Shown here piece by piece: positions 3,100 to 50,110 of a stretch of DNA of 50,110 bases. The DNA is from a virus: positions 1 through 50,110 of the IMG/VR virus record IMGVR_UViG_3300001765_000072; one strand, given 5' to 3'. The notes under the pieces were generated by a model, which was not told the DNA's origin, ran no database searches, and worked only from the letters and a program-made list of their open reading frames with translations. Position 1 is the first letter of the stretch; the number at the start of each line of letters is the position of its first letter. The translations under genes and the position numbers were made by a program.

Positions 3100-4161
3100 T
3101 TAAGCCCAGGTAGTAACGTTGTTCGTATTCATCAGGTAGGTACGGTTTACGGATTTCCAGGAAGGGAAAGCGTTAATTTCGCCCCTGGTAAACTCGTTTA
3201 CTGGGTCAGTCTTCCGGTATTTCGCTACCAGGATATTATTTTTTACTACCTGCACTTCTTCAGCCGGCGGGTTTGTTACAGAAGCCAGCGGCCCACATAA
3301 CATATCACCGCATCTTAATTCAGGAAGGAAGGTTACCTTATGTTCATCCCAGGGGTTAACGCGAACTATCGTACCGTCGGCCTTTTCTATGCCTATACTT
3401 TGCTTAATAAGCTTGATAGTCGGCAGCCCTTCAGCCAGTAGGAAGGTATTAGTTTCTTCCAGGGTCGGCGCTTTGGTTTTAACCGTTCCGATAACTTCGC
3501 CCTTAACTTCGGTAGTCTTACGCATAGCTTCAAACTGGGCCTGGCGCATTAACATAAACTGTAACATATGTCCGTTAGCGTCAGCCATAGCTACCACTTT
3601 ACGAATGTCTGTTAGTGGTGTAGCGGTCGCCCCGGTGCCCCAGGTAATGGCTACGCCTGTTTTGTTATCTGCCGGTACCTGGAAGTCTACAGCTACTTCT
3701 GTAACTACGCCGTTATTGTTATCTAGCGTCAGGTTCATAGTACCGGTAGAAAGCGCTTGTAAGGTTATCCATTCCAGCCGGGCCTGTACGCTTTCGTAGG
3801 CAAAATCTACGTCGCCAAAAACCAGGTCTAAAATAGTCTTTTGGTCAGGGCTAGCCATAGCCGACAGTATGTTATATTCGTTTATATCGCGTTCTCTCAT
3901 AACGCGTTTAACGCGAATAGGCGGTATTTCGCCTACCAGCTTACCTACGGTCTGCCGGCTTTTTATCGGGGCGCTGCTGTCATACGTTACGACGTCGGCA
4001 GCAATAGCGCTATCCTGGTCGCCTATAATGGTTTCGAAGGTCAAAAACGCTGTTTTCTTCATAGGGAAAAACAGCGGAAAAAGTACAATCGGGAAAGCCC
4101 TAGCGTTTAGGTAGGTTTCCATATTCTTTTTACTCACTTCCTTTAAAATTGAACGTTCCAT
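3100..4161 (-). CDS. Major capsid protein (lambda gpE-like)
   Basis: 353 aa. N-terminal FPIVLFPLFFPMKKTAFLTFETI... resembles the Phage_cap_E family. It follows the scaffold and decoration-like genes in lambda order. Confidence 0.7.
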   Translation of the reverse strand: MERSILKEVSKKNMETYLNARAFPIVLFPLFFPMKKTAFLTFETIIGDQDSAIAADVVTYDSSAPIKSRQTVGKLVGEIPPIRVKRVMRERDINEYNILSAMASPDQKTILDLVFGDVDFAYESVQARLEWITLQALSTGTMNLTLDNNNGVVTEVAVDFQVPADNKTGVAITWGTGATATPLTDIRKVVAMADANGHMLQFMLMRQAQFEAMRKTTEVKGEVIGTVKTKAPTLEETNTFLLAEGLPTIKLIKQSIGIEKADGTIVRVNPWDEHKVTFLPELRCGDMLCGPLASVTNPPAEEVQVVKNNILVAKYRKTDPVNEFTRGEINAFPSWKSVNRTYLMNTNNVTTWA

Positions 4162-4188: not shown

Positions 4189-5124
4189 TTAAACGAAGCG
4201 AATAAGGCCTGCCAGCTGCTGCTTCGCGATAACGCCGAAGCTGTAGGGACAAAGGGTTTCCTTAACAGTACCGCGTACTACTACGCTAACGCCGGTGTTT
4301 GCACCGGTAGGAGTATTACCGCAAATTACGCCGTTAACGGTGTATTTGGGTTGAAGGTCTGCAATAGGCACCCCACCGCTAAAGTAGTCGGACGCTATTG
4401 TTAATACGCCGCCTACAGCGGCGGCATCCCAGGTGCCGCCCGCGGTACAGGTAACCTGGGTAAGGTTAGCGGTTCCGGTTACGGTAAGGGCCCGAATAGC
4501 GGCCTGAATTAACGCGGCCGTGTTTTTATTCGCGGTCGTATTTGCCAGTCTGATAAGAAGTACGCCAGTAGTCGGCGTATAGGTAACGGCCAAACTGTCG
4601 CCTGAATTCGCGTTAATGGTTACAGTTTTACCGTTAAGGTTTCCGGTAGCATCGCTTAAGGTCAGCGTGGCTGCTACTATGTCTTCTACTACTGCTACCG
4701 AAGGCGTGGCTGCGGCTACGCTTTCGCTGGTTCCCTGGTAAAGTACTGCGCCGACTAATACCGGTTCCTTCGAATCCAGCGTAGCGGTCAGGGTCAGGGT
4801 GTCGTAACTGGCCTGGGTTGTATTAATACCGGTTATCTCGGTACTTACTTTCCCATTAGTGATAAAGTCGCCTACCTTGAAAAGGTGCGCTTTGGTTACC
4901 CTTACTGAAGTCGCGGCGGCTGCGGCCTGTGCCTGTAATAGCGCGGTTTTAGCTACGTGAACTAAACCGGCTTCCAGTCTTACAGGGGTGCCTTCCAAAA
5001 CTTCAGCCAGGGCTGTAGGAAGTTCGGCAGATACAATAGTACCGCCGCCTACAGCGAATTCCAGTACGTCCAGTATAACTACTGGGTACCGGCTGTCATT
5101 GGTTTTTGTAATTTGAATTCCCAT
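4189..5124 (-). CDS. Head decoration-like protein with inserted T/A/V-rich domain
   Basis: 311-aa ORF between scaffold and capsid gene (the lambda gpD position). Confidence 0.4.
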   Translation of the reverse strand: MGIQITKTNDSRYPVVILDVLEFAVGGGTIVSAELPTALAEVLEGTPVRLEAGLVHVAKTALLQAQAAAAATSVRVTKAHLFKVGDFITNGKVSTEITGINTTQASYDTLTLTATLDSKEPVLVGAVLYQGTSESVAAATPSVAVVEDIVAATLTLSDATGNLNGKTVTINANSGDSLAVTYTPTTGVLLIRLANTTANKNTAALIQAAIRALTVTGTANLTQVTCTAGGTWDAAAVGGVLTIASDYFSGGVPIADLQPKYTVNGVICGNTPTGANTGVSVVVRGTVKETLCPYSFGVIAKQQLAGLIRFV

Positions 5125-5147: not shown

Positions 5148-5837
5148 TTAAAAATCTGTCGGTACGTTAAAACCGCTGGCAGTCGCTGACGCGGTGCCCC
5201 GGCTCTTAGCTACTTCGATTATAGCGGCATCGGCTACCTGTTCATTGCCTGGTTTTCCCTGGCCCGGCTTACCGCCTGCTGCCAGTATGGCGTTATTAAA
5301 TTCCTGTAGCTGTTCGTTAAAAACGCCTTCTACGCGGGCTACTTCTGCTTCTACCGTTGCTTCGCCTTCCAGGTTCATAAGGTCTACCAGTTTAGGGCTT
5401 AGTTTTTTGGCCGCCAGGGCTGCCAGGGCTGCTGCCTTCTTACCTTCCAGCGCGGCCTTCGCCTGCTGGCCGGTTATCAGGCCCTTAATTTCGCCCAGCA
5501 AAGGGCCTACTACCTTAAGAATTCGGGCTGTTTCAGGGTCAGGGTCTGCGGGGTCTGCCGGGTCGCCTGGTTCCGTTGTAACTTTCCCCTTCTTCAGAAG
5601 TAGGTTAATTCGCCTGTCGGTTTCGCTTTTCAGCGCGGCTTCGTGTGCTGCCTTTAACGTAGGGTCTGCCAGTACTTCGGCTAACGTCGTAGGCGCTTTG
5701 GGCGCCGCCGGCATAAGGGCCGCGAAGGCTGCTACGGCGCCGTCTACTTCTTCAGCAGTCGTAACCGTAATAAACTTCGCCAGGTCTTCGTTATAACCTG
5801 CTTTTTTTAGTGCTGCTTTAATCTGTTCGGTAAACAT
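5148..5837 (-). CDS. Scaffolding protein
   Basis: 229 aa, Ala/Lys/Glu-rich helical protein directly upstream of the capsid genes. Confidence 0.6.
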   Translation of the reverse strand: MFTEQIKAALKKAGYNEDLAKFITVTTAEEVDGAVAAFAALMPAAPKAPTTLAEVLADPTLKAAHEAALKSETDRRINLLLKKGKVTTEPGDPADPADPDPETARILKVVGPLLGEIKGLITGQQAKAALEGKKAAALAALAAKKLSPKLVDLMNLEGEATVEAEVARVEGVFNEQLQEFNNAILAAGGKPGQGKPGNEQVADAAIIEVAKSRGTASATASGFNVPTDF

Positions 5838-6060: not shown

Positions 6061-6282
6061 CTATTTTTCGGTTATTGTTAACCATTGCCTGGGTTTACCG
6101 TATTCGTAAACGTACTGGCCTGTTTGCCCTTCTAAAACGCTTTTATGTTCTACCCGGTTACGTAGTATTTCGCTGGGTATTCTGTCGTACGCTAGGCACC
6201 TGCCGAAGCCCTGGTAGTGGGCGCAGCTGGCGCAGGCTGGCGTAATTAAATAGGGTTCCGCTTGTCTTTCTTCTAGGCTCAT
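6061..6282 (-). CDS. Hypothetical Cys-rich protein
   Basis: 73-aa ORF with PACASCAHYQGFGRC; 4-nt gap to the upstream gene. Confidence 0.5.
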   Translation of the reverse strand: MSLEERQAEPYLITPACASCAHYQGFGRCLAYDRIPSEILRNRVEHKSVLEGQTGQYVYEYGKPRQWLTITEK

Positions 6283-6286
6283 AATG

Positions 6287-8404
6287 TTAAAGTTCTTCTA
6301 GTATAACGTCGTAAATATCAATATCATAATAATCAGGCCGTACTGTTCGCTTCGTAATAGATACTACCCTGAATTCGGTACCGTCAGCAAATAAAAACTC
6401 GTCTTCGTGTTTCAGCCCTACCGGCTTTACGCAGGTACTACTATGGCTGTTACGTATATACAGGTTTACGCTTACCGGCTGGCTGCTGTTCGCCCTGGCG
6501 AAGCTGTCGGCTACTTCCTTCTTAAAACTACTACTCATAAACCCGCTATCTATATGTACGCCAGTTTCGCCCCAGGCTTTCAGGTAGCGGCCTTCCATAC
6601 TTTCGCGCGTCGTTTTAAAGCCCCGGTACAGCTGGCCCTGGTACTTCGGCCCGGTCGCCAGGCCAGCGCGTATAAGGTTCGCGTAGTCGCCCATTTGTTC
6701 AGCCGTAAGCCGGTTCATACCGGCGCCGCCTGTACGTAGGTAGGTATTCAGGTTCGTATAGCCTGAACCGGTGTAATACGTAAACGCGCTTTTCATATCG
6801 GCAGTCATTTTATAACTCCACCACTCCGACAGGGTAAATGCTTCGTCAAAGTTCGTACTTACCGGCCAGCCGCCGGCCTGTACCATATGGTCAAAGTTCA
6901 TACCGGTAGCCTGTTCTACCTTCAGCTTAGCGGCTGCCAGCTTTTCGTTTAGGCCGACGGTTCCCATTTTATCTATGTACGCCTGCTGTTCCTGGGCCTT
7001 CTTCAGCTTTTCGGCCTTCTTAGCGGCCGCCTTCGCTTTCTTTTCGGCTGCCAGTTCCTTCTTTACCTGCTGTTCCCAGGCCAGTTTTTCAGCCTGGTAT
7101 TCGGCTTTCTTCTTTTCTTCGTTCGCCATCCATTTAGCTAGCGCGTCTTCTGAAGCCTTTTTACCGGCCGCGTATTCTGCCTGGGCCTTCTTCAGGTCTG
7201 CCGCTGCCTGGGCCGCCTTCTGTTCTGCCAGTACCTGGGCCTGGGCCGCCTTCTGTTTCGCGGCCAGTTCTTCTGCCAGGTTAGCGTACTGGCCCTTCGC
7301 CATCGGTATAGGCTTCGGTATATTCAGGCTAGCGGAACCGTAGTTAATCAGGCTAACGGCTACCGGGTTTATTAGCTTACTAGCCTGGCCCATAGCGTCG
7401 AAGTTCTGATTAAACCAGTAGGGCTTTTTAGCCATACCCTGTATTTTACCCAGCTTAGCGTTTAGGTAAACCTGGGCCTGCCGCGGTATGTCTTTAATGT
7501 ACTTATTTTCCTTAACATACCCGGCCTTCAGCGAAGCTATAAACTGGTCTTCCTTCAGTAGTATGTTTTCAGTCCAACAGATACAGCGCGGGTGCCAGCC
7601 TGGAAACCTGAAGCCTTTAGGGTATTCGCCGGCCATATAATCACAAATATCCTTCCGCGGGTGCGCTGCGCTTAAGTTTATCCGTACGCCAGTAACGAAG
7701 GGTATAGACTGCCGGCGCTGGTAGTCGCTTTCCCGGTATGCCATATTTATTTCGGTACCGGTCAGCCTTAAGGCGTTCTGAAAACTGCTACGGTATACGC
7801 CGCGGCCAGGGTGAAACGCTTTAGCGGCTTTACTTAGTTCCAGTTTCCCGGTTTCCTTATTTCGTACGCGTCGAAAAAGTTTATCAGGGTATTTTAGGTA
7901 CTGTTTGGTTTGGCTGGCTAGCTGCCTGGCTGGAAGGCCGGCGGCTATGCCTTCTGCTAGCGCTATTTCCAGCTGGGTTTTTGTTTTCGCGGTCAGGGCC
8001 CAAACCCTATCTGATAAATTCATACCGTCTACCTTCCGCTTTAAGAAGGTTTCCAGGGCTTCGCCGTTTCGGCCTAGCATTGCAGCGGCAATAGTCGGCG
8101 GTATATCCATACCGCGGGTATACTTCAGTACCAGCGCGTCGTTTGCCTGGTCTGCCAGGTTCCAGCCGACGTACGTACCCTGCTGTATCTTACTTACCAC
8201 TTCGTCGCCCATTACCCGCAGGCTTTCGTCTATCTGTTTTTCGAAGCCAGGGTTAACAGTCCATATACTTTGGGTCGCGCTTCCTTTAAGCTGGGCGCCG
8301 TAAACGATACCTTCTACTTTCGCCAGGTACTTATTCAGTTCCTTTTTCACCTGGCTAGCGTATGCCGCCTGGGCTTTCTGTAATTTTTCTTCGTACGGCG
8401 TCAT
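6287..8404 (-). CDS. Head morphogenesis protein (SPP1 gp7 / Mu F family) fused to an A/K/E coiled coil and a C-terminal R-S-E ADP-ribosyltransferase domain
   Basis: MuF signature GWHPRCICW. ART motifs YTGSGYTNLNTYLR, LYRG, GFMSSS (STS) and HEDEF (ExE, nt 6398-6406). Confidence 0.8.
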   Translation of the reverse strand: MTPYEEKLQKAQAAYASQVKKELNKYLAKVEGIVYGAQLKGSATQSIWTVNPGFEKQIDESLRVMGDEVVSKIQQGTYVGWNLADQANDALVLKYTRGMDIPPTIAAAMLGRNGEALETFLKRKVDGMNLSDRVWALTAKTKTQLEIALAEGIAAGLPARQLASQTKQYLKYPDKLFRRVRNKETGKLELSKAAKAFHPGRGVYRSSFQNALRLTGTEINMAYRESDYQRRQSIPFVTGVRINLSAAHPRKDICDYMAGEYPKGFRFPGWHPRCICWTENILLKEDQFIASLKAGYVKENKYIKDIPRQAQVYLNAKLGKIQGMAKKPYWFNQNFDAMGQASKLINPVAVSLINYGSASLNIPKPIPMAKGQYANLAEELAAKQKAAQAQVLAEQKAAQAAADLKKAQAEYAAGKKASEDALAKWMANEEKKKAEYQAEKLAWEQQVKKELAAEKKAKAAAKKAEKLKKAQEQQAYIDKMGTVGLNEKLAAAKLKVEQATGMNFDHMVQAGGWPVSTNFDEAFTLSEWWSYKMTADMKSAFTYYTGSGYTNLNTYLRTGGAGMNRLTAEQMGDYANLIRAGLATGPKYQGQLYRGFKTTRESMEGRYLKAWGETGVHIDSGFMSSSFKKEVADSFARANSSQPVSVNLYIRNSHSSTCVKPVGLKHEDEFLFADGTEFRVVSITKRTVRPDYYDIDIYDVILEEL

Positions 8405-8488: not shown

Positions 8489-8728
8489 TTATACGGCTTC
8501 TAGGCATATTTTCTCTAGTCTTACCCATAAATTAGGGTCATATACCAGCTGGAAACATAGCCCGCTTTTCAGGTAAATAAAAATACCGCCCTTATCCAGG
8601 TTAGCGGCGCTTACTTCGCTTTCCCTGAATATAAAATCGGTTACGGCCGGTTCCGGTTCCGGTAGCCCCAGGTTCCTAGCCCGGTCTACCGCCTGTTCGT
8701 CGGCGTTACCCAGTATTTTAGCCTTCAT
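8489..8728 (-). CDS. Hypothetical protein
   Basis: 79-aa ORF overlapping the upstream gene. Confidence 0.45.
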   Translation of the reverse strand: MKAKILGNADEQAVDRARNLGLPEPEPAVTDFIFRESEVSAANLDKGGIFIYLKSGLCFQLVYDPNLWVRLEKICLEAV

Positions 8729-9059
8729 ACGGTTTTATACTGTCAGGATTTACGCCCCAGGAACCGGCCAGGCCGGGCTTATAGGCGTCTACTTCGCAAA
8801 TTAGCCGGCAGGTATAGGTTTTTTTCCCTACTGAAAAAAGAATATCTACCGCGGCTTTACCGGTATTACGTTCGCTTACATAAACCGCCTTCTTCCAGTT
8901 TACCCCATCCGTTAGCCTGGCTATTACCTGCGGTTTGTCGTTATGGTAAATACTTAACCAGGTCTTCTGTATTCGCTTCCTGGCCTTAACGAAGTCGCCC
9001 TGGCTTATGGCCTGGGCGAACTTTACAAAACAGCGTTTTCTTCGGTTAATTAGTTCCAT
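8718..9059 (-). CDS. Hypothetical protein
   Basis: 113-aa ORF after the portal gene. Confidence 0.5.
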   Translation of the reverse strand: MELINRRKRCFVKFAQAISQGDFVKARKRIQKTWLSIYHNDKPQVIARLTDGVNWKKAVYVSERNTGKAAVDILFSVGKKTYTCRLICEVDAYKPGLAGSWGVNPDSIKPYEG

Positions 9060-9069
9060 TTTCGTAGGG

Positions 9070-10455
9070 TTAAATAGTAAAGCTTTCGCCCTTGCTGGCT
9101 TCTTCTTCTATTTCTTCCAGTTCGGCTATAGCGTCTTCTACCATCGGGTTTAACATTACGGCCGTTTTCTTACTCATAATACCAGCCTGTACGGCGCTTA
9201 CCAGGTTACTTATAACTTCGGTTTCGTCTATCGGTAGCGGTTCGTTATAGGCTACTTCTACCTTCAGCTGGCCCAGCGCCAGGGCTTTCTTAGCGTCGAA
9301 GAATGCTAACATTGCTTTTAAAACACTTATTCTGCGCGTCATACCGTCGTCGAACATATCGCGGTTAATTATGGCCTTTTGCGTCGCGCTCATAAATAAG
9401 AAGCGCATAGCTACGCCGCTAAGTTTCCCGGCTACGCCCTGCAATTTGTCAAAACTTAAATCCGGCGTGTCGCTTATACTATGTACGAATTCGCGCAGTA
9501 GTTCTATTTCCAGCTTGATAGCTTCCGGGGTCTGATCCCATGTAAGGTATTCGACGTCGCCCCAGGTGCCGCCGGTTCCCTGTTTCAGTTGAAACAATTT
9601 ACCTACTTCTTCCTTTTCAGGTGCGTTAATTATTTCGCCCCTTATTTTTACAGCCGGGCTGGCAAAGTAGTCGTTAGTATCATCAAATTTACTTAACCGG
9701 TCTTCCAGTTTTTCTATTAGGCCCTGTACGTCGTTCCAGTCAGGCGCCTGTATTTCGTAGTAAACTACCGGTATTTTCTTAAATGGGTTTACTTCCGTTT
9801 TCGTTACCCAGTCGGTACCTTCCAGGGTATTCGTTACCTTCTGTTCAGCGGTGTATATTTCCAGGGTATCTATTTTTACTTCGCTGCCGTCGTCATTAAC
9901 GTCTACCCTGGTAAACCGTCTAGTAAACGCGTCCATATCTCCCAGGTCGTCGAAATGCGGGTAAATGTAGTCGCCATTTTCCAGGCATAACAGCCGGGCC
10001 CTGGTTCTGTAGGCCGGGCCGCCTGGTAGCTTTTCGTTTTCCGGTATCGGCGCCTGGTAGAATAACGTAGCGGCCCTGGTTTCGATCAACAGCCGGCGGG
10101 CCAGGTTTTTGTTTATGGTATCTAGCTTCGCCTTATCCCATTCAGCTACTAGGTAGTCGTAGGCGTCGTTTAATGACTGTTCGGGCGCCAGGTTTTTCAT
10201 AACTAGCCTGGTACCGCCGCCGAATAAGAAAAATACGCTACTGTTAACGATTTTCTTCTGAAGCTTCAATACCAGCTTAGCCTGCGGTATTTCGCGCCTG
10301 TTGTTTTCGGGCCCTGCTATCTTAGGGGCTCTGTTTAAAATCTTATGTTCGCCGTCGTATTCTTTTACCGCGTTTAAAATGGTATCAGGGTAAGCCTTCG
10401 TTAAAATCTTAATTTGATTTTCAACAGGAAGGGTTAAAATATCTGCTATTAACAT
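9070..10455 (-). CDS. Portal protein
   Basis: 461 aa with an acidic C-terminus, immediately downstream of TerL and upstream of the MuF-type protein. Confidence 0.75.
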   Translation of the reverse strand: MLIADILTLPVENQIKILTKAYPDTILNAVKEYDGEHKILNRAPKIAGPENNRREIPQAKLVLKLQKKIVNSSVFFLFGGGTRLVMKNLAPEQSLNDAYDYLVAEWDKAKLDTINKNLARRLLIETRAATLFYQAPIPENEKLPGGPAYRTRARLLCLENGDYIYPHFDDLGDMDAFTRRFTRVDVNDDGSEVKIDTLEIYTAEQKVTNTLEGTDWVTKTEVNPFKKIPVVYYEIQAPDWNDVQGLIEKLEDRLSKFDDTNDYFASPAVKIRGEIINAPEKEEVGKLFQLKQGTGGTWGDVEYLTWDQTPEAIKLEIELLREFVHSISDTPDLSFDKLQGVAGKLSGVAMRFLFMSATQKAIINRDMFDDGMTRRISVLKAMLAFFDAKKALALGQLKVEVAYNEPLPIDETEVISNLVSAVQAGIMSKKTAVMLNPMVEDAIAELEEIEEEASKGESFTI

Positions 10456-10482: not shown

Positions 10483-11970
10483 TTAGAAAAAACCGTATTC
10501 TGCTTTAGTCTTTTTAACAACAGAAGGCGAAGGCCATACCGGCCAAAAACTTAAGGCCAGGCTATCTGCTTTGTCAGGGCTACAGCCCAGGCGCTTTTTT
10601 ATTTCGTCTTTAGGTTCTATTTGTATTTTCCCGGTACTGTTAAAAAAGTACTTCGGTTCTATAATCTGCGCCGCTAGTTCGTCGTCAGGCGGTAACATAG
10701 CGCCGGTTTCATTGGCCGGGTTTAACCAGTCGCGCAGGGCCCAGTAGCAATACGCCCGCAGGTTTATAAATTCCAGCTGGCCAGTTTGATCTTTGGGCGC
10801 GTCGCCCTGGCTAAATTTAGCGCTTACAGCCCATTCTACGCCCTGTTCGTACAGCCTAGAGTATACGCCAGCCCCTTCGCCTATCGTATCAATAAAGGCC
10901 GGCCCCTGGTTCCTGGTTACCCATTCCTTCAGCCAGCCAGCGGTCGCCATATGTACGCCGGCGTTCAGCGCGGCCAGTTCCGTTAAGTCCGGTACGTATT
11001 CGCCCTGGCGTTCGCAGATTATCGTACGGTCGCGGCCCATACCTGCAATATCGGCGCCCAGGCATTTTTTCCCGGTCAACAGGTACGGCGCCTTATGGAA
11101 GGCTAGCCAGCGCTGCTGCGCCATTTCTACCCAGCGCAGCGGTATTAACTTACTGGCTTCTTCGCGCGGAAATTCGCCCATTACCTTTATCAAAAAAATA
11201 TCATTAGGCCGGTAGTAGGCACCGTTCCAAACAAAATCATATTCTAGCGGGTTATAAACTTCTTCGCTTATCCTGGTAGTCCAGCCCGGCATTTTTACCC
11301 TTTCGTCTACCCAGTTAAAGTCTACCTGTCCTGGGTAAATAATCTTATTAGCCACTACGTTAGGCGCCTTTAAACTGTTCATATGGAATTTAACGTACTG
11401 CGGGCTGGTTTGGCTTTTATAAATTTCACCGCTGCGCTGGTTAGGATTAAATACCAGTACCAGGCGGCTATTACCCTGCAAAATACCTTCTACGGCGTTA
11501 AAAGTTGCCTGGTTTAAACCGCTGGCTTCTGTCATAACTACCATAATATTAGGGCTGTGAAACCCAGACCAGGCTTCGGTATTTTTGTCTTCAGCCTTAA
11601 ATCCAATTAAATAATGGTTTTTTTCCTTAAACCGGATACCGTTATCTAACATTCTACCGCCTACTGGAAAACGTGCATTCCTGTAAAGCCTGTCTATTTC
11701 AGGCATCATAATAAGCTTAACCTGCCTGTCAGTAGGGGCCGTATTTATAACCTTTGCCGGCCAGTTCAGGTATAAAAAGGCGTGGCCTGCTACGGCGGCC
11801 AGGAAGTCTTTACCCCGGCTAGTGCCACTACGTACGCTTACCCTTCGGTTAACCTGTATAGCCTTCAGTATGGCCTGTTGTTCGCTATCCAGGGTTACCC
11901 CTAGCGCTTCTGTAGCGTATAGGTTCCAGTCGCTACGCCATAGCCTTACGCGGTTAGTAATTTCGTTCAT
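10483..11970 (-). CDS. terL: Terminase large subunit
   Basis: Walker A-like SGTSRGKD and Walker B-like IMVVMTEAS. RNaseH-like nuclease motifs LGADIAGMGRDRT, IDTIGEGAGV and SPDKADSLALSF. Confidence 0.85.
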   Translation of the reverse strand: MNEITNRVRLWRSDWNLYATEALGVTLDSEQQAILKAIQVNRRVSVRSGTSRGKDFLAAVAGHAFLYLNWPAKVINTAPTDRQVKLIMMPEIDRLYRNARFPVGGRMLDNGIRFKEKNHYLIGFKAEDKNTEAWSGFHSPNIMVVMTEASGLNQATFNAVEGILQGNSRLVLVFNPNQRSGEIYKSQTSPQYVKFHMNSLKAPNVVANKIIYPGQVDFNWVDERVKMPGWTTRISEEVYNPLEYDFVWNGAYYRPNDIFLIKVMGEFPREEASKLIPLRWVEMAQQRWLAFHKAPYLLTGKKCLGADIAGMGRDRTIICERQGEYVPDLTELAALNAGVHMATAGWLKEWVTRNQGPAFIDTIGEGAGVYSRLYEQGVEWAVSAKFSQGDAPKDQTGQLEFINLRAYCYWALRDWLNPANETGAMLPPDDELAAQIIEPKYFFNSTGKIQIEPKDEIKKRLGCSPDKADSLALSFWPVWPSPSVVKKTKAEYGFF

Positions 11971-13413: not shown

Positions 13414-14316
13414 TTATAGGTTGTTTTTTATAAATGGAATTTTTCTAAATATATGCTTTATTACTTCAGTATTCCAGCCATTACCTACCATTATGTAGCG
13501 CTGCTGCGAAGAAGCGCCAGCGGTGTAGTTATCCGGTAAACTTTGCAGGCGTTCGCATTCTAGCGGGCTTAGTTTACGGTAGCCTATTTTTTCGCCTTGC
13601 TGCGCTTTGTATTTCGGGCTAACCGGGGCGCTTCCTTCGGGAAAATGTAGCACACCGTTACCGGCAGCCGTTACCCCTGAAGGTTCCATTACCAGTAAGC
13701 CTGTTTTATTCCGTTTTATCATACTCTTAGCGTTTTCTTTATAAAGGGTCGCTAAGATAGTTTGGCTTTTATCGCGTAAGGCTAGCCCTGATTCTAGTAC
13801 GTCCTGAAGCCTTACGAACTTGTTACCCGGCTGCTTTATCGGTAAATTAGTCCAAAACAATCGTTTCCTACTTTGACCTGATACCCGGCTAGCATCAATT
13901 TCAACAGGTATAACGCCTAGCGTCTTATTTATAACCGCTTCTATACTCTTAGGCATTTTTACATTTTCTAGCATCCAGTAAGTAGGGTTTACCTGCTCTT
14001 TTATCCTTACGAATTCAAAAAACAGCTTACTACGCGGGTCTTCAAAGTTTAAACCATTACCGGCTATACTAAAACCCTGGCAGGGTGAGCCACCTATCAA
14101 TAAATCTACAGGCCCTAATTTACTGGCGTCTAGTTTCGTTACGTCGCCCAGTTGTACGGTAGCGGGAAAATGCTTTTTAACAACATCCATAGAATGTTTA
14201 TGTATTTCGCTAGCGTAGTAAAGGTAATTCGTTAGCCCTAGCTGCTGAAGGGCTAGCTGGCCGGTACTTATACCGTCGAATGAAGACAATACAGTTATTT
14301 GCTTTTCGTTTTTCAT
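13414..14316 (-). CDS. DNA (cytosine-5)-methyltransferase, orphan
   Basis: Motifs SFDGISTG (I), GGSPCQGFS (IV), MLENVK (VI), QSRKRLF (VIII) and GNGW (X). No adjacent endonuclease. Confidence 0.85.
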   Translation of the reverse strand: MKNEKQITVLSSFDGISTGQLALQQLGLTNYLYYASEIHKHSMDVVKKHFPATVQLGDVTKLDASKLGPVDLLIGGSPCQGFSIAGNGLNFEDPRSKLFFEFVRIKEQVNPTYWMLENVKMPKSIEAVINKTLGVIPVEIDASRVSGQSRKRLFWTNLPIKQPGNKFVRLQDVLESGLALRDKSQTILATLYKENAKSMIKRNKTGLLVMEPSGVTAAGNGVLHFPEGSAPVSPKYKAQQGEKIGYRKLSPLECERLQSLPDNYTAGASSQQRYIMVGNGWNTEVIKHIFRKIPFIKNNL

Positions 14317-18360: not shown

Positions 18361-18527
18361 ATTCCCAGGGTGCCCTGTGGCGTCTTCTGCTGTTCCAGGG
18401 TAATTAACAGGCGGTCTACTATCTGTTCCTGGGCCTTGCTTTTTCTTAGCGTTTCCTGGCTGCGGCTTCGGAAGTATTCTTTTTGCAGGCGTCGCATTTC
18501 TTTTACTGCTTCTATTAGTTCCTTCAT
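18357..18527 (-). CDS. Hypothetical helical mini-protein (56 aa, not in the track)
   Basis: MKELIEAVKEMRRLQKEYFRSRSQETLRKSKAQEQIVDRLL...; ATGA overlaps at both ends. Confidence 0.4.
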   Translation of the reverse strand: MKELIEAVKEMRRLQKEYFRSRSQETLRKSKAQEQIVDRLLITLEQQKTPQGTLGI

Positions 18528-19180
18528 AATTGTATTATTAACTGTGATTTATGTGTATTAAACCGCTGTAAGGCGTCCTGATAGTATTCAGTATCAATTT
18601 CACACCAATCTAAAGAAAAACCTAGATTGTGGCAGGCTATACATATCGAACCACTACCGCCGTGTGTATCTAGTATTTTGTCGCCGGGTTTGGCGTAATT
18701 GTTTAAAATCCAGTGGTATAAATCAACAGGCTTTTCCGTCGGATGAATTCTGTTTATTTGATGCTTTTTCTTAAATCCAGCCCATAAGTAATTGAACATA
18801 TTACACTTAATATCGAAAGAAGACCAAGCTAGTTCAGCCATTGATAAATGTTCTTTAATGTCTGCTTCTTTATTCCATACTATCCAACCGCTTTTAGGTT
18901 TTAGATATTCCGTAAAATAATTCCCACCCCATATAATTTGGTTTTTAGATACTCTAAATAGTTCATTAAAATAGGATTTATCAGGTATTTTACTATCGTC
19001 GAACGTTTTATAATGACGGCTTAATGGGTTTTTCCATTTTACTGTGGGTCTATCACCTGTTGCATTCCTTTGGCCATTTTCACCTATTCCATACTGGGGG
19101 TCAACTATTGCCAGATCATAAAATTTATTTGGCTTGTCCTTCATAAATTCCATACAGTCAGTATTCAGCATATTTATCAT
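18524..19180 (-). CDS. DNA amino-methyltransferase (N6-adenine or N4-cytosine), beta class, orphan
   Basis: DPQYGIG (DPPY-like motif IV) lies N-terminal to HPTEKP and LDTHGGSGS (motif I). Confidence 0.8.
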   Translation of the reverse strand: MINMLNTDCMEFMKDKPNKFYDLAIVDPQYGIGENGQRNATGDRPTVKWKNPLSRHYKTFDDSKIPDKSYFNELFRVSKNQIIWGGNYFTEYLKPKSGWIVWNKEADIKEHLSMAELAWSSFDIKCNMFNYLWAGFKKKHQINRIHPTEKPVDLYHWILNNYAKPGDKILDTHGGSGSICIACHNLGFSLDWCEIDTEYYQDALQRFNTHKSQLIIQL

Positions 19181-23033: not shown

Positions 23034-23302
23034 ACGCCTATATGGCCTAGCGCGTTTTTAATCGCTAGCATAAAATCGTTACCATCTACGGTAAATACCG
23101 GGCCGTCGTCTACCTGTACGTTTACCTGCCTGGCGTAGCGCCCTTGCTGGCTTATTTTTACTACCTGGGCTTCGCCCCTTATAACAGATAGCGTACTTAT
23201 GGTTTCTACTACCAGGCCGCGCGGCCGGCTTTGCCTTTTAAAGGTAAACCTGCCGCGCTTTGGTGTTTCAGGAAAAAACTCTAATAGTTTAGCTTCAGGC
23301 AT
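23030..23302 (-). CDS. Hypothetical protein
   Basis: 90-aa ORF, coupled. Confidence 0.5.
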   Translation of the reverse strand: MPEAKLLEFFPETPKRGRFTFKRQSRPRGLVVETISTLSVIRGEAQVVKISQQGRYARQVNVQVDDGPVFTVDGNDFMLAIKNALGHIGV

Positions 23303-24698
23303 TTTCTATGAGTTCTACGGTTAACATTTCTTTACCCCGGCGTACTTCTTCGATAAAGCCCTGTAACTTGTTTTCTTTAGCGAAGGCTATAATACCGGCC
23401 ATTTTTTCGGTTCCTAAGTCCTGGCCGTTCAGTATCTTAAATACGCCGGTTTTCTTATTGCTGGCTATCTGAAGCGCGCAAGCTACCTGGGTCATATCCG
23501 AAGTCGAAACCGTGGCGAAGTTAAAAGGCAGGCCGTTCAAATAAAGGCCGTCTTCGTCGAAGGTAAGGCCATTTACCGGCATATCTGCCGAAGTAATTAA
23601 CGCCTTCCTGGCTGCGGTTTTTTCTTCCAGTTCCTTCGTCTTAACCTGGTAAGCTGCCGTAGTGACGTTAAGCTGTTCGGTACGCTGCTTTAACGTAATA
23701 ACCTTGCTGAAGTCCTGGTTATGTTTAGTAGACGTTTCTAGCGCGTTTTTAATCACTTCTACCTGGTCAGCCAGGCCGTCGTAGGTTTTAACTACCGCGG
23801 CGCCATTTTCATTACGTTTTTGAAGTTCTGCCTTCGCGGTTATCCGGTTATCCAGGCCGTCTTTCTTCGCCTGGGTTTTAGCGCGCTGCTTACTTTTAGC
23901 TTCCAGTAACTGGCGTTCCAGTTCCAGTACCGCGTCGTCGGCTGCCTTTATATCGGCGTCGTAAACTTTGGTTAATTCTGCCGTCATTCCATCCCAGCCG
24001 GCGGCTTCGCTTTTCAGGTTCGCCAGCAGGGTTTCGGCCGCTTCCTTCGCCGCTTCCTTCTTCAGAAGCGCCTGTAGGGCCTGGGTTTGTTCTACCGGGT
24101 TAATTTCACCTTTTGCGGCCAGGGCTTCTATGTACAGGCCGTCGGTAGCGGTTAAAGCTTCCTGGTAGTTAACCTGGTTGTTAGCCAGCTGCACGTTTAA
24201 CGAAGTTCTTAACTGCTGAATATTGGTAATTTCCTGGGCCAGTTCCGCGGCCTTCTGCCTTACTTCGGGCGCCAGCAGAAGCTTTACGGTTTCTACCTGC
24301 TTACGCCTACCGTCAGCCGTTTCACTCCATCTTAAAAATTCGTTAGCGTCGAAGTCGGTATGCTGGCATAGGCTATGAAGGAAGCCTAGTTTATCGGAAA
24401 ACATACCGGTTTCCAGGTCGGTTATTTTCAGGGTTCCGCGCGGGTTTTTTTCGCTGTACTTCAGGTTAAATTCGTAGTCTTTACCGTTAATTTCGTACTT
24501 CGTTACTACTTCGCCGTCGGTAGCGCCCTGGCTTAAAATTTCGCCGGCTCTTTCGCCGGTAAAGCCCATTATAATAGCTTCGATTAAATGGCTTTTCCCT
24601 ACGTTGTTTTCACCGGTTATTAAGTATACCCCGGCTACCAGGTCTAGGTCTACCTGCTTTACGTTTTTAAAATTTCGAATGTGTACCTGCTTAATCAT
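23295..24698 (-). CDS. P-loop ATPase with central coiled coil (SMC/RecF/SbcC-like N-terminus)
   Basis: IRNFKNVKQVDLDLVAGVYLITGENNVGKSHLIEAI followed by a long A/E/K/Q coiled coil. No clear LSGG signature was seen. Confidence 0.55.
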   Translation of the reverse strand: MIKQVHIRNFKNVKQVDLDLVAGVYLITGENNVGKSHLIEAIIMGFTGERAGEILSQGATDGEVVTKYEINGKDYEFNLKYSEKNPRGTLKITDLETGMFSDKLGFLHSLCQHTDFDANEFLRWSETADGRRKQVETVKLLLAPEVRQKAAELAQEITNIQQLRTSLNVQLANNQVNYQEALTATDGLYIEALAAKGEINPVEQTQALQALLKKEAAKEAAETLLANLKSEAAGWDGMTAELTKVYDADIKAADDAVLELERQLLEAKSKQRAKTQAKKDGLDNRITAKAELQKRNENGAAVVKTYDGLADQVEVIKNALETSTKHNQDFSKVITLKQRTEQLNVTTAAYQVKTKELEEKTAARKALITSADMPVNGLTFDEDGLYLNGLPFNFATVSTSDMTQVACALQIASNKKTGVFKILNGQDLGTEKMAGIIAFAKENKLQGFIEEVRRGKEMLTVELIENA

Positions 24699-27109: not shown

Positions 27110-27834
27110 TACCAGCTTATTTTTTCGTTAGTAGTCATTACAAGCTTACCAGCCTGCCGGTCGCGGCGCAGCCAGTTACGTACAGTTAGCGCCCAGTCTG
27201 CCTTTTTTTTCGGCGCCGTTCCAGTTTTCCCGCGGGCCCAGTCGCTTACCTGGTTAAAATAATAAACCAGGTCTATACCGGCTTCGGCTTCCTGGTTAAA
27301 CATTGTTTCCCAGGCTTCATACGTACCTATAGGGCTACTTATAAAAGTATGAAGCTTCGCCGGCTGGGCCGCGGGCCCTGCTTCTTCAAATAATAAATTA
27401 TGGTATACTTTATTATTATTCTTATACTGTAAACTTTCGTTTACACTACCTGTAAACTGTGGTTTACAGCCCTGTAAACTTTGGTTTACAGGTTCAACGT
27501 CGTTAAAAAACAACTTTGTATAACTGGGCCCTATCCGGTACAGGGTCTTCGTCATTTTTTGGCAGTCCTGGCTTTTTTCCAGCAGGCCGGCGGCTAGCAG
27601 GTTTTCCATACGCTTTATAATACCCTGCCGCGTCGTTATTCTAAGTAAAGGAAGCCCCTTCATTATCAGGGTATGGCTTACCCAGTAAAAAATACCAGCC
27701 GGCGTTTCTACCGGCTGGCAGCCGCCGCTGGCTATAAATTCCTTTACGTAGTCCAATATAGCCAGGTCGGTAAAGTCAATATCCCAGCCGTTCTCTATAG
27801 CAGCCCTTTGGTCTATTAGAATAGTGTACTTCAT
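27109..27834 (-). CDS. Winged-helix replication initiator-like protein
   Basis: N-terminal wHTH-like TRQGIIKRMENLLAAGLLEK; position in the replication module. Confidence 0.4.
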   Translation of the reverse strand: MKYTILIDQRAAIENGWDIDFTDLAILDYVKEFIASGGCQPVETPAGIFYWVSHTLIMKGLPLLRITTRQGIIKRMENLLAAGLLEKSQDCQKMTKTLYRIGPSYTKLFFNDVEPVNQSLQGCKPQFTGSVNESLQYKNNNKVYHNLLFEEAGPAAQPAKLHTFISSPIGTYEAWETMFNQEAEAGIDLVYYFNQVSDWARGKTGTAPKKKADWALTVRNWLRRDRQAGKLVMTTNEKISW

Positions 27835-28526
27835 TGGCCTAGCTGTTTTAAACCATGCGGCTGGTTAAACGTATCTACTATAGCCATATTGGTAGGGTCT
27901 GCATTCGGTACCAGGGTAACTACCGGAAACCTGGAAGCTTCGCCGGGGTGTTGGCTTTTAGCGAAGTTTACTACCAGGTCGAAGGGCTGGAAGGCTAAAG
28001 TTTTACGTACCTGTAAAACCGTATCGAAGGCCCCTATTATCTGCGGTATACTGCTTTCTTTGCCGCGGGTTGTAAACTGCCAAAAACCCATAACGCTACG
28101 TACTTTAGGAAGTAGGAAGTTTAGGGTTAATTCGTGAAGCCAGCCGTACTTTGTCGGCCATTTTTTCGCTATTTCTTCTAACAGCGCCGGCCGTTCTGCC
28201 AGGGTAATAGTTAGGTATTTACTTTCCTTTTCGTTCCATACTTCGAAGGTTTCACCGTCGCCCCTGGCGCAAACTTTACCCTGGTCGTTATAGTATACCA
28301 TCCTTTCCCTACAGCTTTGGTTTTGGTCGTCGCTTATGAAGACTACCGTTATACGGTTCTGCTTCACATAAACAGCGTCGAAGTAGCTGGCGTAGTCGCC
28401 GGTAGCTATAAAGTAGTCTAAGCTTCGCGGGTAACCGTTGGCCGTCTTTTCGCCTATCTTAATCTTACCTATACGCGGTAACCGCAGGCTGGTAGGTTCC
28501 TGCGGTCTTATTATTCTGCCGTTCAT
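27831..28526 (-). CDS. Hypothetical protein next to the exonuclease (possible annealase or RDF-like family)
   Basis: N-terminal LRLPRIGKIKIGEKTANGYPRSLDYF motif. The function is not established. Confidence 0.5.
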   Translation of the reverse strand: MNGRIIRPQEPTSLRLPRIGKIKIGEKTANGYPRSLDYFIATGDYASYFDAVYVKQNRITVVFISDDQNQSCRERMVYYNDQGKVCARGDGETFEVWNEKESKYLTITLAERPALLEEIAKKWPTKYGWLHELTLNFLLPKVRSVMGFWQFTTRGKESSIPQIIGAFDTVLQVRKTLAFQPFDLVVNFAKSQHPGEASRFPVVTLVPNADPTNMAIVDTFNQPHGLKQLGQ

Positions 28527-32902: not shown

Positions 32903-32924
32903 TGTGTGAAGTTTTTAAGTTTAG

Positions 32925-32977
32925 CAGCCTGGTAGCGAATCGAACGCTACGCCTTCAGTATTTCAACCGTTCAGGCT
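32925..32977 (-). other. tRNA-like 3' half (T-arm plus acceptor strand), not a complete tRNA
   Basis: Minus strand AGCCTGA-N21-TAGCG TTCGATT CGCTA CCAGGCT G: canonical T-loop TTCGATT with a 5-bp stem and 6/7 acceptor pairing. No D arm or anticodon arm. Confidence 0.35.
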
Positions 32978-32992
32978 TCCTATTTCAACCGT
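32959..32992. repeat. Two 12-bp direct repeats TATTTCAACCGT, 22 bp apart
   Basis: Copies at 32959-32970 and 32981-32992, 57-90 nt upstream of the first early gene. Confidence 0.7.
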
Positions 32993-33180
32993 GTTATTTA
33001 TTTTACGCTTCCAGTTAGCATTTTTTCAGTTCGTGATTTACTACCCGGCCAGTACTCGCTATTTCTGTTCTAGCGTGGTTGTCTATAACCTTGTAATGTA
33101 CTGGCTACCATTGCCTTTAGCCTTTCTAACACTCGGATTTCCCTATCAATACGTCAATGAACAGGTACAAATATCGGGCT

Positions 33181-33305
33181 TTTGCGCTATTTCGCAAACA
33201 TTTGCGCGGTTATTTTTGCGTATGTTCGCAAATATCTACGTAACTATCTGAATTACTGGCAGATTATTTTTAATTCTAGCGAACATTTCGTAAAACATTC
33301 GCAAA
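33181..33305. promoter_or_regulatory. Array of six TTTGCG / CGCAAA half-sites (operator, tandem promoter or origin candidates)
   Basis: TTTGCG at 33181, 33201 and 33215; CGCAAA at 33193, 33227 and 33300. The minus strand reads nAnnTTTGCGAA three times. Confidence 0.4.
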
Positions 33306-33367
33306 AGTTCGGGCCGGGTATTTTCACCTTCCAGCGCCAGGCTGTCTAAAATCGCCTGAAAATGGGC

Positions 33368-33398
33368 AAAAAAAAGGGGCACCTGTTTAGGGTGCCCC
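33368..33398 (-). terminator. Intrinsic terminator ending the late/lysis transcription unit
   Basis: GGGGCACC-tgtttag-GGTGCCCC, followed on the minus strand by T8. Confidence 0.7.
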
Positions 33399-33427
33399 GG
33401 AAAACTGAAACGATTAACGAAACGAAG

Positions 33428-49700: not shown

Positions 49701-50110
49701 CGGCTTAATTACGCTGGTTAACATACCGCGCATAGCTGAAGTAAAAATATCGGTTTTCAGGGTTTTGGTTCCCAGCGCGTAGGCCGCTGCCAGGTCGTCG
49801 AAGGCCAGGCCAGCCTGCGCCGCTATACCGGTTACGTTCGTAATGGCCGGCGCTATTTCTCTCATACTGGTTTTACCCAGGCGAACAATGGTAAAAAGCC
49901 TATCCATTATGTCGGCCGTGTTACCCGCGCTGGCGCCGTAGGCGTTCATAATTCCAGTTAACGCGTCGGCCGTGGTAAAGGTATCAGTTACGCCTGCTAC
50001 AGCTCCGTGGGCTGATACCGTTAGTATATCTAAAGCCTGGGCGCTATCGTACCCGGCGCTTACTATTTGGTACAGGGCCTTACTTAATCCTGTGGCTGTA
50101 TCCGGTACCG
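46707..50110 (-). CDS. Tape measure protein, main body (total 1234 aa when joined to 1-347)
   Basis: Very long alpha-helical, coiled-coil-rich ORF with hydrophobic segments, sitting between the tail chaperones and Dit. The frame stays open upstream of the M at 49949 to the window end. Confidence 0.85.
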   Translation of the reverse strand, partial: VPDTATGLSKALYQIVSAGYDSAQALDILTVSAHGAVAGVTDTFTTADALTGIMNAYGASAGNTADIMDRLFTIVRLGKTSMREIAPAITNVTGIAAQAGLAFDDLAAAYALGTKTLKTDIFTSAMRGMLTSVIKPAKEATEQAEKLGIQFDVAAIKTKGLGGFMADLMKKTGGNIDTIAKLFPNVEGLAGVLSIAGENGEKFAEALANIKAGTGSAEVAYKKMMESFTNQRKVLANNVNAELKPLGDALLGQASKLLVSLNKAFDDGTVTKIVKSLGALATVIKILGIAWATSKAAAILFNGIMNAGIIIAKIKEAVTWRIMLAEEALSNTTKKLTASMVTMTAAQKAANVAMKANVVGAAIGVVVALGMAIAALTKRHKEYINTNEVLKETQREANQEIGNEISKLDILFERLRNAKTSQEDRKKTIDEINSSYGEFLPNLLTETNYIQASAEAYAVINKRVRERIELMARERVAAKLYEQITTKQMELEDQQSRLKKVGLVTDAFAPKENRNLPAEIAKTDAELGQLNAAYEKILASITEIQIKSSADNITPDKPKAEVDLDKALELGKKKIEVEKVLEQISAEQERASKIKLERDLFDIEVEAQEKLIALLKKYGKDASLEEVTLEKTKADRQLAQEQQIVESEKVITDTANKEKRASWDTLLKDELTLAEEAQKKRVKMAQAAQDGQLEQQRQALLKSYSTGEIDYFEYVSRLENIQIDWYEKQQKNASQYQRYLQGMNITQLVNHRQVLKKEIEDAKTQKAKLEATERLHLANIQTILVGAQVIANSIKATMDSLGVDSPAIDSLFSQFSEMTGAAGKVLSGDILGGLADAGTSQVKKWSTMVSQLSSLFDKYQMGLLRLSVASSKAQNEIALGYAEQSASTALLMELELEKMKLYQAEYDKLAEKRNTERRQGKKDDLAQSYADAKATYDRLAESLTKTTAESIADGIIQGFAAGKNPSEVFADTFEGLMKNALLESFKQKVLLAGIDDFYKAFTEASVSGNELTPDEITALRAQYMAALQTAGDNFAQLEKISGLSLAAADATGSNGQGLAGAIKGITEDTANLMAGQLGNMRINIQNQLEVNKDSLVVLKQIASNTAYLKLLVEINQRLGTNETANQLRANGNV
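50065..50110. repeat. Second copy of the 46-nt terminal repeat
   Basis: Exact match to 1-46. Confidence 0.9.

Follow-up and report, generated by a model that had tools for sequence, protein, structure and literature searches.

Does a protein that belongs to the head of a tailed phage also carry an enzyme meant for the next host cell? This question is raised by a gene on the minus strand of the IMG/VR virus record IMGVR_UViG_3300001765_000072, of which we analysed positions 1 to 50,110 (this whole stretch of 50,110 nucleotides is called the window below). The product of 705 amino acids (aa) is supported as a protein of three parts: a MuF-like head-morphogenesis domain (the N-domain), a low-complexity linker, and a C-terminal R-S-E ADP-ribosyltransferase (ART) domain with an intact ExE motif. 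We consider it likely that the protein is a polymorphic toxin of the MuF family, encoded by a tailed phage, with a predicted competent and probably arginine-specific mono-ADP-ribosyltransferase of the C2/C3/Vis type that would be packaged in the capsid, injected with the DNA, and restrained by a 73-aa protein encoded directly downstream.

An earlier reading, made from the letters and the open reading frames (ORFs) of the window (the sequence-only reading), had described the protein as a MuF/SPP1 gp7-type head protein fused to an ART and as a likely injected effector. When the 705-aa ORF and the coordinates of its motifs were recomputed, all were present where claimed, and the span 6290-6850 that this reading had singled out corresponded to aa 519-705, i.e., to the ART domain. 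The division into three parts also stood, with agreement between hidden Markov model, profile and structure evidence and with the middle part taken as a low-complexity linker. The same 705-aa protein (P0001) was called as a gene on the JGI/NCBI metagenome contig MIS_10000245 (3300002026).

The ADP-ribosyltransferase domain

By profile, motif and fold, the C-terminal domain is identified as an R-S-E ADP-ribosyltransferase (C2/C3/VIP2/Vis-like) whose active site is intact. The Pfam model ADPrib_exo_Tox (PF03496) matched it with 44.6 bits (E 1.4e-11, profile positions 11-179 of 196), compared to a gathering score of 23.4 bits; chance can hardly account for such a match. The best solved relative found by sequence was the Vis toxin of Vibrio splendidus (E 3e-8), with the R, STS and ExE elements aligned. 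Along the chain, the segment YTGSGYTNLNTYLR occupies aa 544-557, while the motifs GFMSSS and HEDEF occupy aa 621-626 and aa 666-670, respectively.

To count conservation, the 70 best ART domains were aligned with MAFFT. R594, E667 and E669 were each conserved in 70/70 sequences and S624 in 69/70; position 626 was either S or T in all 70. In alignment A1, R594 was invariant (27/27), and so were the other catalytic columns. The score above the gathering threshold, the near-invariant columns and the motif alignment with Vis thus bear out an R-S-E triad in the correct order with an intact ExE motif, as the sequence-only reading had it.

When 1.84 billion cluster representatives were scanned exhaustively with HMMER, 218 relatives of the ART domain came up at E<=1e-3. 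Just 12 of them reached E<=1e-10, and the nearest were ~27-37% identical; therefore, we regard the domain as a divergent lineage. The best-scoring relatives were giant proteins, one of 1,636 aa with five ART-like stretches (P0121) and one of 7,334 aa with seven (P0122), which may be polyvalent or multi-ART effectors.

The AlphaFold2 model of aa 500-705 had a predicted local distance difference test score (pLDDT) of 91.1 and a predicted template modelling score (pTM) of 0.86. A Foldseek search of this model against the PDB gave 139 matches at E<=1e-3, and the top 50 were ARTs without exception, which bears out the ART fold with its helical N-subdomain and split beta-sandwich. The best match was again Vis (E 2e-12, template modelling (TM) score 0.68), and the top matches also included Plx2A, Certhrax, Tre1, C2-I, C3bot, VIP2, iota-like toxins, CDTa and ExoS. 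In BFVD, the best match was a phage head-morphogenesis::ART protein (TMq 0.82). Phage MuF::ART fusions, such as A0A6J5SW33, that of RP180 and that of Percival (rank 39), appeared at ranks 1, 16 and 39, and Alt-like proteins at rank 44. The comparison with PF03496 and with C3 and Alt structures that had been proposed as a check of the domain therefore matched ART folds, with C3bot among the PDB top 50 and Alt-like proteins at the BFVD rank just given.

The enzyme is apparently active, as predicted from these conserved positions. The nature of its motifs also suggests a specificity for arginine, since the motif is ExE and not QxE and since the nearest relatives are arginine transferases; the best fold matches, namely Vis, Certhrax, Tre1, C2-I, iota and ExoS, are enzymes of the ExE kind that modify arginine. 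This assignment draws on established knowledge of the family.

The N-terminal domain and the linker

The best reading of the N-domain is a divergent MuF-like domain, and the evidence for it is of the remote-homology kind. PHROG 35295 matched with E 1.8e-72, PHROGs 7625 and 1657, both described as 'head morphogenesis', with E 1e-36 and 6e-31, and PHROG 115, 'minor head protein', with E 3e-14; PHROG 16625, 'Bxa ADP-ribosyl transferase', matched the fusion protein at E 1e-54. Searches by tblastn with the N-domain found head morphogenesis and minor capsid proteins of Porphyromonas, Riemerella and Bacteroides phages, as well as proteins of Microbacterium phages, some of them annotated 'MuF-like fusion protein'.

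The link to MuF runs through one of the Microbacterium phages. In an hhalign comparison, the N-domain matched the MuF-like protein gp13 of phage Hiddenleaf with a probability of 98.6% (E 1e-15, 246 columns). Hiddenleaf gp13, whose homologue in phage DannyDe bears the annotation 'capsid maturation protease and MuF-like fusion protein', aligned in turn to positions 3-111 of the 112 positions of the Pfam model Phage_Mu_F (PF04233), with a score of 24 bits that lies below the cut-off of 29.6.

The motif GWHPRCICW, cited in the sequence-only reading, is found at aa 269-277 (nt 7574-7600). Among 16 N-domain homologues, H271 and C274 were invariant, and P272 and C276 were kept in at least 90% of the sequences. 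The HPRCIC core of the motif aligned with HPNCYC of the Hiddenleaf MuF-like protein; it also stood opposite DCNCRC of SPP1 gp7, in an alignment that was not significant overall.

The structural model of the N-domain had a pLDDT of 72.8. Its fold search in BFVD gave 52 matches at E<=1e-3 with low TM scores of 0.2-0.47, and almost every named match was a MuF-like, minor capsid or head morphogenesis protein. When PDB sequences were searched with a profile of the N-domain, only noise was returned.

The middle part had been described as an A/K/E coiled coil. The segment rich in these residues is real, with A 27%, K 22% and E 13% in aa 391-500, but the coiled coil found no support. Proline and glycine make up 3 of the 126 residues of aa 375-500, and a Fourier analysis of the hydrophobic positions in this range gave no periodicity of 3.5 residues; the coiled coil was therefore rejected as stated. 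Given the few Pro/Gly residues and the missing hydrophobic periodicity, we treat the segment as a low-complexity linker rather than a demonstrated coiled coil, and we see in it a variable, probably helical spacer. Within the linker, a unit of 27 bp is repeated in tandem (2.4 copies, 79% matches, at 7177-7242), and the length of the spacer may vary through repeat expansion. In the closest relative, P0002, a P/K-rich linker takes the place of the A/K/E linker.

Exchange of C-terminal domains among relatives

More than 2,400 proteins have the N-domain in common, with ~36-51% identity, and end in differing C-termini. The domains found there were PF03496/PF01129, PF15644, PF18798, PF07591/HINT and a JAB-like domain with the pattern HNHPSG..D; some of the homologues had no recognisable C-terminal domain. 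A shared N-domain joined to interchangeable C-terminal domains makes the pattern that of a polymorphic toxin.

The closest phage, L002, is syntenic with the window and encodes a MuF::ART protein of 598 aa (P0002). The identity between the two phages was 61% for the terminase large subunit (TerL), 63% for the major capsid protein, 50% for the MuF N-domain and 48% for the portal, compared to 31% for the ART domain and 29% for the small ORF downstream of it. Because the ART domain and the small ORF are far less identical than the other parts, the toxin end of the locus evolves fastest.

Two further phages, L004 and L005, have MuF genes that are related to the same degree and code for a JAB-like C-terminus. 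In both of them (L004 3214-7628, L005 3217-7510), the MuF::JAB-like gene in the head module is flanked by genes of a UDP-glucose dehydrogenase and a glycosyltransferase. A methyltransferase gene is also present in this region of L004, while L005 has there a 191-aa ORF with no Pfam match.

The small downstream gene

The stop codon of the fusion gene is followed almost immediately by the 73-aa ORF, the junction being TAA-CATT-ATG. Among 5.8 billion proteins, a profile search identified a sole homologue of the 73-aa protein, a 63-aa ORF overlapping the stop of the MuF::ART gene of L002. The residues C17, C20, C29 and H46 are kept in this homologue. An IMG/VR search found no relatives of the 73-aa ORF, and the protein had no family or structure match. 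At the same position, L004 and L005 carry unrelated small ORFs.

These observations are consistent with a role of the 73-aa protein as the immunity protein of the toxin, and with the pairing of toxin and immunity genes reported for MuF toxins and for Bxa and Bsi (PMC5576092, PMC11699363). With just one homologous pair to go by, we put this role forward as a hypothesis.

The 79-aa ORF directly upstream of the fusion gene is a weaker candidate for an immunity or accessory gene. It had no counterpart in L004 or L005; together with the 113-aa ORF next to it, it is common to the window and L002 only. Searches of Pfam, PHROGs, NCBIfam, PADLOC and PDB sequences gave no matches for the 73-, 79- and 113-aa neighbours.

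Head module and genome

The fusion gene lies in a head module with the order TerL, portal, 113-aa ORF, 79-aa ORF, MuF::ART, 73-aa ORF, scaffold, 311-aa protein and major capsid protein (Table 1). By analogy with SPP1, the portal is the expected docking partner of the MuF protein. In SPP1, gene 7 directly follows the portal gene 6, whereas two small ORFs intervene here. The 311-aa protein, which was 53% identical to its counterpart in L002, may be a decoration or accessory head protein.

Table 1. Coordinates in the window of the fusion gene, its domains and motifs, and the neighbouring genes
Feature	Position	Strand	Basis or remark
MuF-like::linker::ART fusion gene, 705 aa	6287..8404 (including stop codon)	-	ORF list
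Predicted MuF-like head-morphogenesis/minor capsid domain, aa 1-340	7385..8404	-	PHROGs, tblastn, hhalign
HPRCIC motif, aa 271-276, end of the MuF-like core	7577..7594	-	Alignment of homologues
A/K/E/Q-rich low-complexity linker, aa 375-500	6905..7282	-	Composition, no heptad periodicity
ART domain, aa 520-705	6290..6847	-	PF03496, AlphaFold2 model, PDB fold matches
Pfam envelope of the ART domain, aa 528-686	6347-6823	-	PF03496
Catalytic Arg R594, motif LYRG (aa 592-595)	6623..6625	-	Alignment; pairs with YRG of Vis
S-S-S (STS motif), aa 624-626	6527..6535	-	Alignment; pairs with STS of Vis
E-D-E (ExE catalytic motif), aa 667-669	6398..6406	-	Alignment; pairs with E-A-E of Vis
73-aa ORF, candidate immunity/inhibitor gene	6061..6282	-	4 nt past the toxin stop codon
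79-aa ORF directly upstream of the fusion gene	8489..8728	-	L002 has an 82-aa counterpart upstream of P0002
113-aa ORF between portal and fusion gene	8718..9059	-	39% identical to the uncalled ORF L002:4681-4995
Portal protein (SPP1 gp6-like)	9070..10455	-	PF05133 E 6e-48, PHROG 64
Terminase large subunit	10483..11970	-	PHROG 2 E 2e-24; tblastn to annotated TerL genes
Head scaffolding protein	5148..5837	-	PHROG 172 E 1.4e-7
311-aa protein, rich in A, T, G, V	4189-5124		Between scaffold and major capsid genes; PHROG 20501 only (unknown function)
Major capsid protein	3100..4161	-	PF03864 E 3e-18, PHROG 29 E 1e-45

The first 46 bp of the window are repeated exactly at its end (1-46 = 50065-50110). 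From this direct terminal repeat, the window is a circularly assembled and probably complete phage genome of 50,064 bp. A megablast search with half of the genome against 50,697 phage records found no similarity at the DNA level to sequenced phages.

A temperate or prophage character was considered and rejected: in a survey of the ORFs of at least 200 aa and of the precomputed Pfam matches of all called genes, no integrase, recombinase or repressor was found. The phage looks apparently virulent, environmental and Bacteroidota-like. None of the called genes of the genome matched the ADP-ribosylhydrolase (ARH), Macro or NADAR families.

Several other features of the genome were recorded. All convincing genes of the window are on the minus strand. 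A gap of ~525 bp (32903-33427) that is free of genes separates the lysis and structural genes from the early and replication genes and may hold an origin or early promoter region. The lone opposite-strand gene of the source annotation (~32991-33349) is a hydrophobic ORF inside this gap, and we did not find it convincing. In a genome with no detectable integrase, positions 27831-28526 encode a phiC31 Gp3-like 'recombination directionality factor-like' protein (PF18897, E 7e-30). Two DNA methyltransferases, a C5-cytosine enzyme (PF00145) and an N6/N4 enzyme (PF01555), are encoded at 13414-14316 and 18524-19180 and probably serve anti-restriction functions. The early region also contains a gene for a 467-aa AAA_15/AAA_23 (SMC/RecF-like) ATPase (23295-24698).

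Proposed mechanism and alternatives

In SPP1, the portal draws a few copies of gp7 into the procapsid, and gp7 supports the start of infection (PMC6316719). MuF toxins have been proposed to be packaged like gp7 and delivered with the DNA (PMC5576092, PMC9503650). The packaged and injected effector is thus a published hypothesis for the class, and the anatomy of the present protein fits it. By analogy with gp7, the N-domain would bind the portal during procapsid assembly, and a few copies would be enclosed per head, with the flexible A/K/E linker tethering the ART domain inside the capsid. At the next infection, the fusion protein would leave the capsid with the DNA, and the ART domain would modify arginines of host proteins using nicotinamide adenine dinucleotide (NAD+) of the host. 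Possible targets include transcription or translation factors, division proteins and defence proteins. In the producing cell, where the gene would be expressed late, the 73-aa CxxC protein probably restrains the enzyme, as the genome encodes no ADP-ribosylhydrolase that could do so.

Several observations weigh against this explanation. The Pfam model PF04233 did not match the N-domain even at E<=10, while SPP1 gp7 scored 114 bits in the same search; NCBIfam gave no MuF match to the N-domain either. A profile of 16 N-domains compared with SPP1 gp7 had an hhalign probability of 0.5%, which is not significant, so that portal binding is a far-reaching extrapolation. With a pLDDT of ~73, the N-domain model is of moderate quality, and its fold matches have low TM scores. 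The case for immunity consists of one pair from two related phages, in which a link to the ART is inseparable from general relatedness. ARH and Macro genes were absent from the called genes, unlike the situation at the locus of Bxa, the MuF-ART of Bacteroides stercoris. The effects of Bxa itself were documented on epithelial cells and, in expression experiments, on bacteria, not through injection from virions (PMC11699363). Finally, packaging, ejection and enzymatic activity are what we infer for the protein studied here. With regard to the MuF-type head domain of the sequence-only reading, the matches in PHROGs, the link through Hiddenleaf, the HPxCxC motif and the position after the portal speak for it, while the Pfam and NCBIfam MuF models miss it.

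The alternative that survives best retains the toxin and changes its route. The protein would be a toxin or fitness factor freed at lysis, either free or associated with virions, and would ADP-ribosylate neighbouring bacteria or eukaryotic cells, as is the case for Bxa. The tripartite architecture is that of Bxa, the protein matches PHROG 16625, and most relatives of the N-domain come from phages of Bacteroidota; for Bxa, an action on epithelial cells and a broad toxicity to bacteria have been described (PMC11699363). However, the logic of a fitness factor for a lysogen is not obviously applicable to a contig that comes from an environmental metagenome and to a genome that has no integrase. 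Besides the MuF-like domain and the linker, the protein has no signal peptide or translocation domain, and encapsidation is the simplest account of the fusion to a portal-binding head protein (PMC6316719, PMC9503650). We consider release at lysis improbable on balance.

A smaller chance still is given to an enzyme that acts mainly as an NAD+ glycohydrolase, which would deplete NAD+ against host metabolism or an NAD-dependent defence and would modify no specific protein. Vis also has NAD+ glycohydrolase activity. According to its PDB entry titles, Vis was crystallised both with NAD and with agmatine, an analogue of arginine, and NADases of the ART fold, such as the Tne families, are reported in PMC13285283. 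Yet R-S-E with ExE, the conserved YxxxN..LR helix and a second glutamate of the ADP-ribosylating turn-turn (ARTT) type form the signature of a protein-arginine transferase, and the best structural matches are all protein-modifying toxins.

Slighter again is the probability of a target among nucleic acids or small molecules, with modification of bases, as by pierisin/ScARP or DarT/CmdT, or with RNAylation, as by T4 ModB. The R-S-E ARTs include guanine-modifying enzymes, and the divergence of the present lineage, seen in the few close representatives and their low identity, leaves room for such a target; T4 ModB attaches NAD-capped RNA (PMC9503650). On the other side, no pierisin, ScARP or DarT structures were among the top 50 fold matches, where the nearest were Vis, Certhrax, Tre1 and C2-I. 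The weakest alternative, a decayed and inactive ART remnant on a purely structural minor head protein, has nothing specific in its favour beyond the fact that the N-domain alone, without a toxin, is common in phages, and we practically dismiss it given that all four catalytic positions, like the NAD-binding motifs, are preserved intact in near-invariant columns and that the model has a pLDDT of 91.

The packaged and injected toxin also has a bolder version, which we find doubtful, though less so than any of these alternatives. The 73-aa protein would represent a novel kind of small inhibitor of an R-S-E ART, non-enzymatic and possibly zinc-binding, and it would let an apparently virulent phage make and package a lethal ART with no hydrolase at hand. 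The divergent ART, in turn, would perhaps have a host target that is new for phage ARTs, for example, a defence protein.

Comparison with known systems

In the sequence-only reading, the fusion had been taken as rather novel. This was not upheld, as MuF-ART fusions are a described family, covered among others by work of the Aravind group from 2017 and 2022 (PMC5576092, PMC9503650, PMC11699363, PMC7302621). The fusion, the polymorphism, the location in the head module and the injection hypothesis have all been published, and the conceptual gain is therefore small: the gene is a sequence-divergent example of a documented MuF-ART arrangement. The differences worth recording are the lack of an integrase and of an ARH, the orphan CxxC mini-ORF, and the divergence of both domains from curated models.

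MuF toxins were defined by Jamet et al. (2017), who found that ARTs make up 14% of their toxin domains, with the EFV toxin of an Enterococcus faecalis V583 prophage as an example (PMC5576092). The present gene shares with these polymorphic toxins a MuF-like N-domain, a variable C-terminal toxin, a place in the head module near the portal gene and a small ORF (<150 aa; here 73 aa) directly downstream as putative immunity gene. Unlike the phages and prophages of that survey, which were all temperate and mostly from Firmicutes, the phage studied here has no integrase or repressor and is Bacteroidota-like, and the Pfam Phage_Mu_F model does not recognise its N-domain, which has diverged too far. 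Temperate origin is not strictly defining for MuF toxins, since MuF::ART fusions are also found in lytic Microbacterium phages (PMC7302621).

Among the known cases, Bxa of Bacteroides stercoris is an arginine-specific antibacterial MuF-ART with the immunity proteins BAH and Bsi and with neutralisation by a neighbouring small protein (Brown 2021; Alexei 2024, PMC11699363). By its description, Bxa likewise consists of a MuF domain (aa 1-322), a middle region and a C-terminal ExE-type arginine-specific ART. Its N-domain family is also spread across Bacteroidales with swapped toxin domains, and small ORFs are its neighbours as well. On the other hand, Bxa has 869 aa, compared to 705 here, and a larger middle domain in place of the low-complexity linker. 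Its locus includes the adjacent ADP-ribosylhydrolase BAH (ARH1-like), with no such enzyme on the called genes here, and it belongs to a gut prophage and not to an environmental, apparently non-integrating phage. The 73-aa ORF has one detectable relative, and its likeness to Bsi is positional only.

In actinobacteriophages, 'ADP-ribosyltransferase domain and MuF-like fusion protein' is a routine label, lytic phages included (PMC7302621). The MuF-like::VIP2 fusions of the Microbacterium phages Percival, Goodman and Johann resemble the present one in that they are encoded in a siphovirus head module, also in strictly lytic phages (PMC7302621). These fusions differ in the phylum of the host, and the ART domains were only ~16% identical to ours in the structural alignment; the Percival protein stood at BFVD rank 39. 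Of the solved catalytic domains, the closest is that of Vis (PDB 4xzj, 4y1w), an ExE arginine transferase with ~25% identity. Tre1 of Serratia proteamaculans (6dre, 6drh), 24% identical, is likewise an ExE arginine transferase and, moreover, an antibacterial one that is paired with a cognate immunity protein. Vis acts as a stand-alone toxin, Tre1 is delivered by a type VI secretion system, and neither has a phage head domain.

T4 Alt is directed into the prohead by a sequence for capsid targeting, and the prohead protease processes it. This R-S-E ART is packaged in the head, injected, and modifies arginines of the host early in infection, and many Alt/VIP2 ARTs fused to MuF, with a predicted packaging in heads, were described by the Aravind group (PMC9503650). 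Alt had been named as the paradigm for the present protein. The functional analogy holds, but membership in the same family does not, since Alt has no MuF fusion; T4 is, besides, a myovirus.

As regards its meaning, the window shows that the MuF N-domain family of the Bacteroidales type reaches as far as an environmental phage that has no integrase. The compact pair of a toxin and a candidate inhibitor, with no hydrolase, points to a possible new mode of ART inhibition. If the protein is active and packaged, it would be another case of a phage that brings along a ready-made enzyme to rewire or disarm the host before phage gene expression, a strategy that is proven for T4 Alt and hypothesised for the very large class of MuF toxins.

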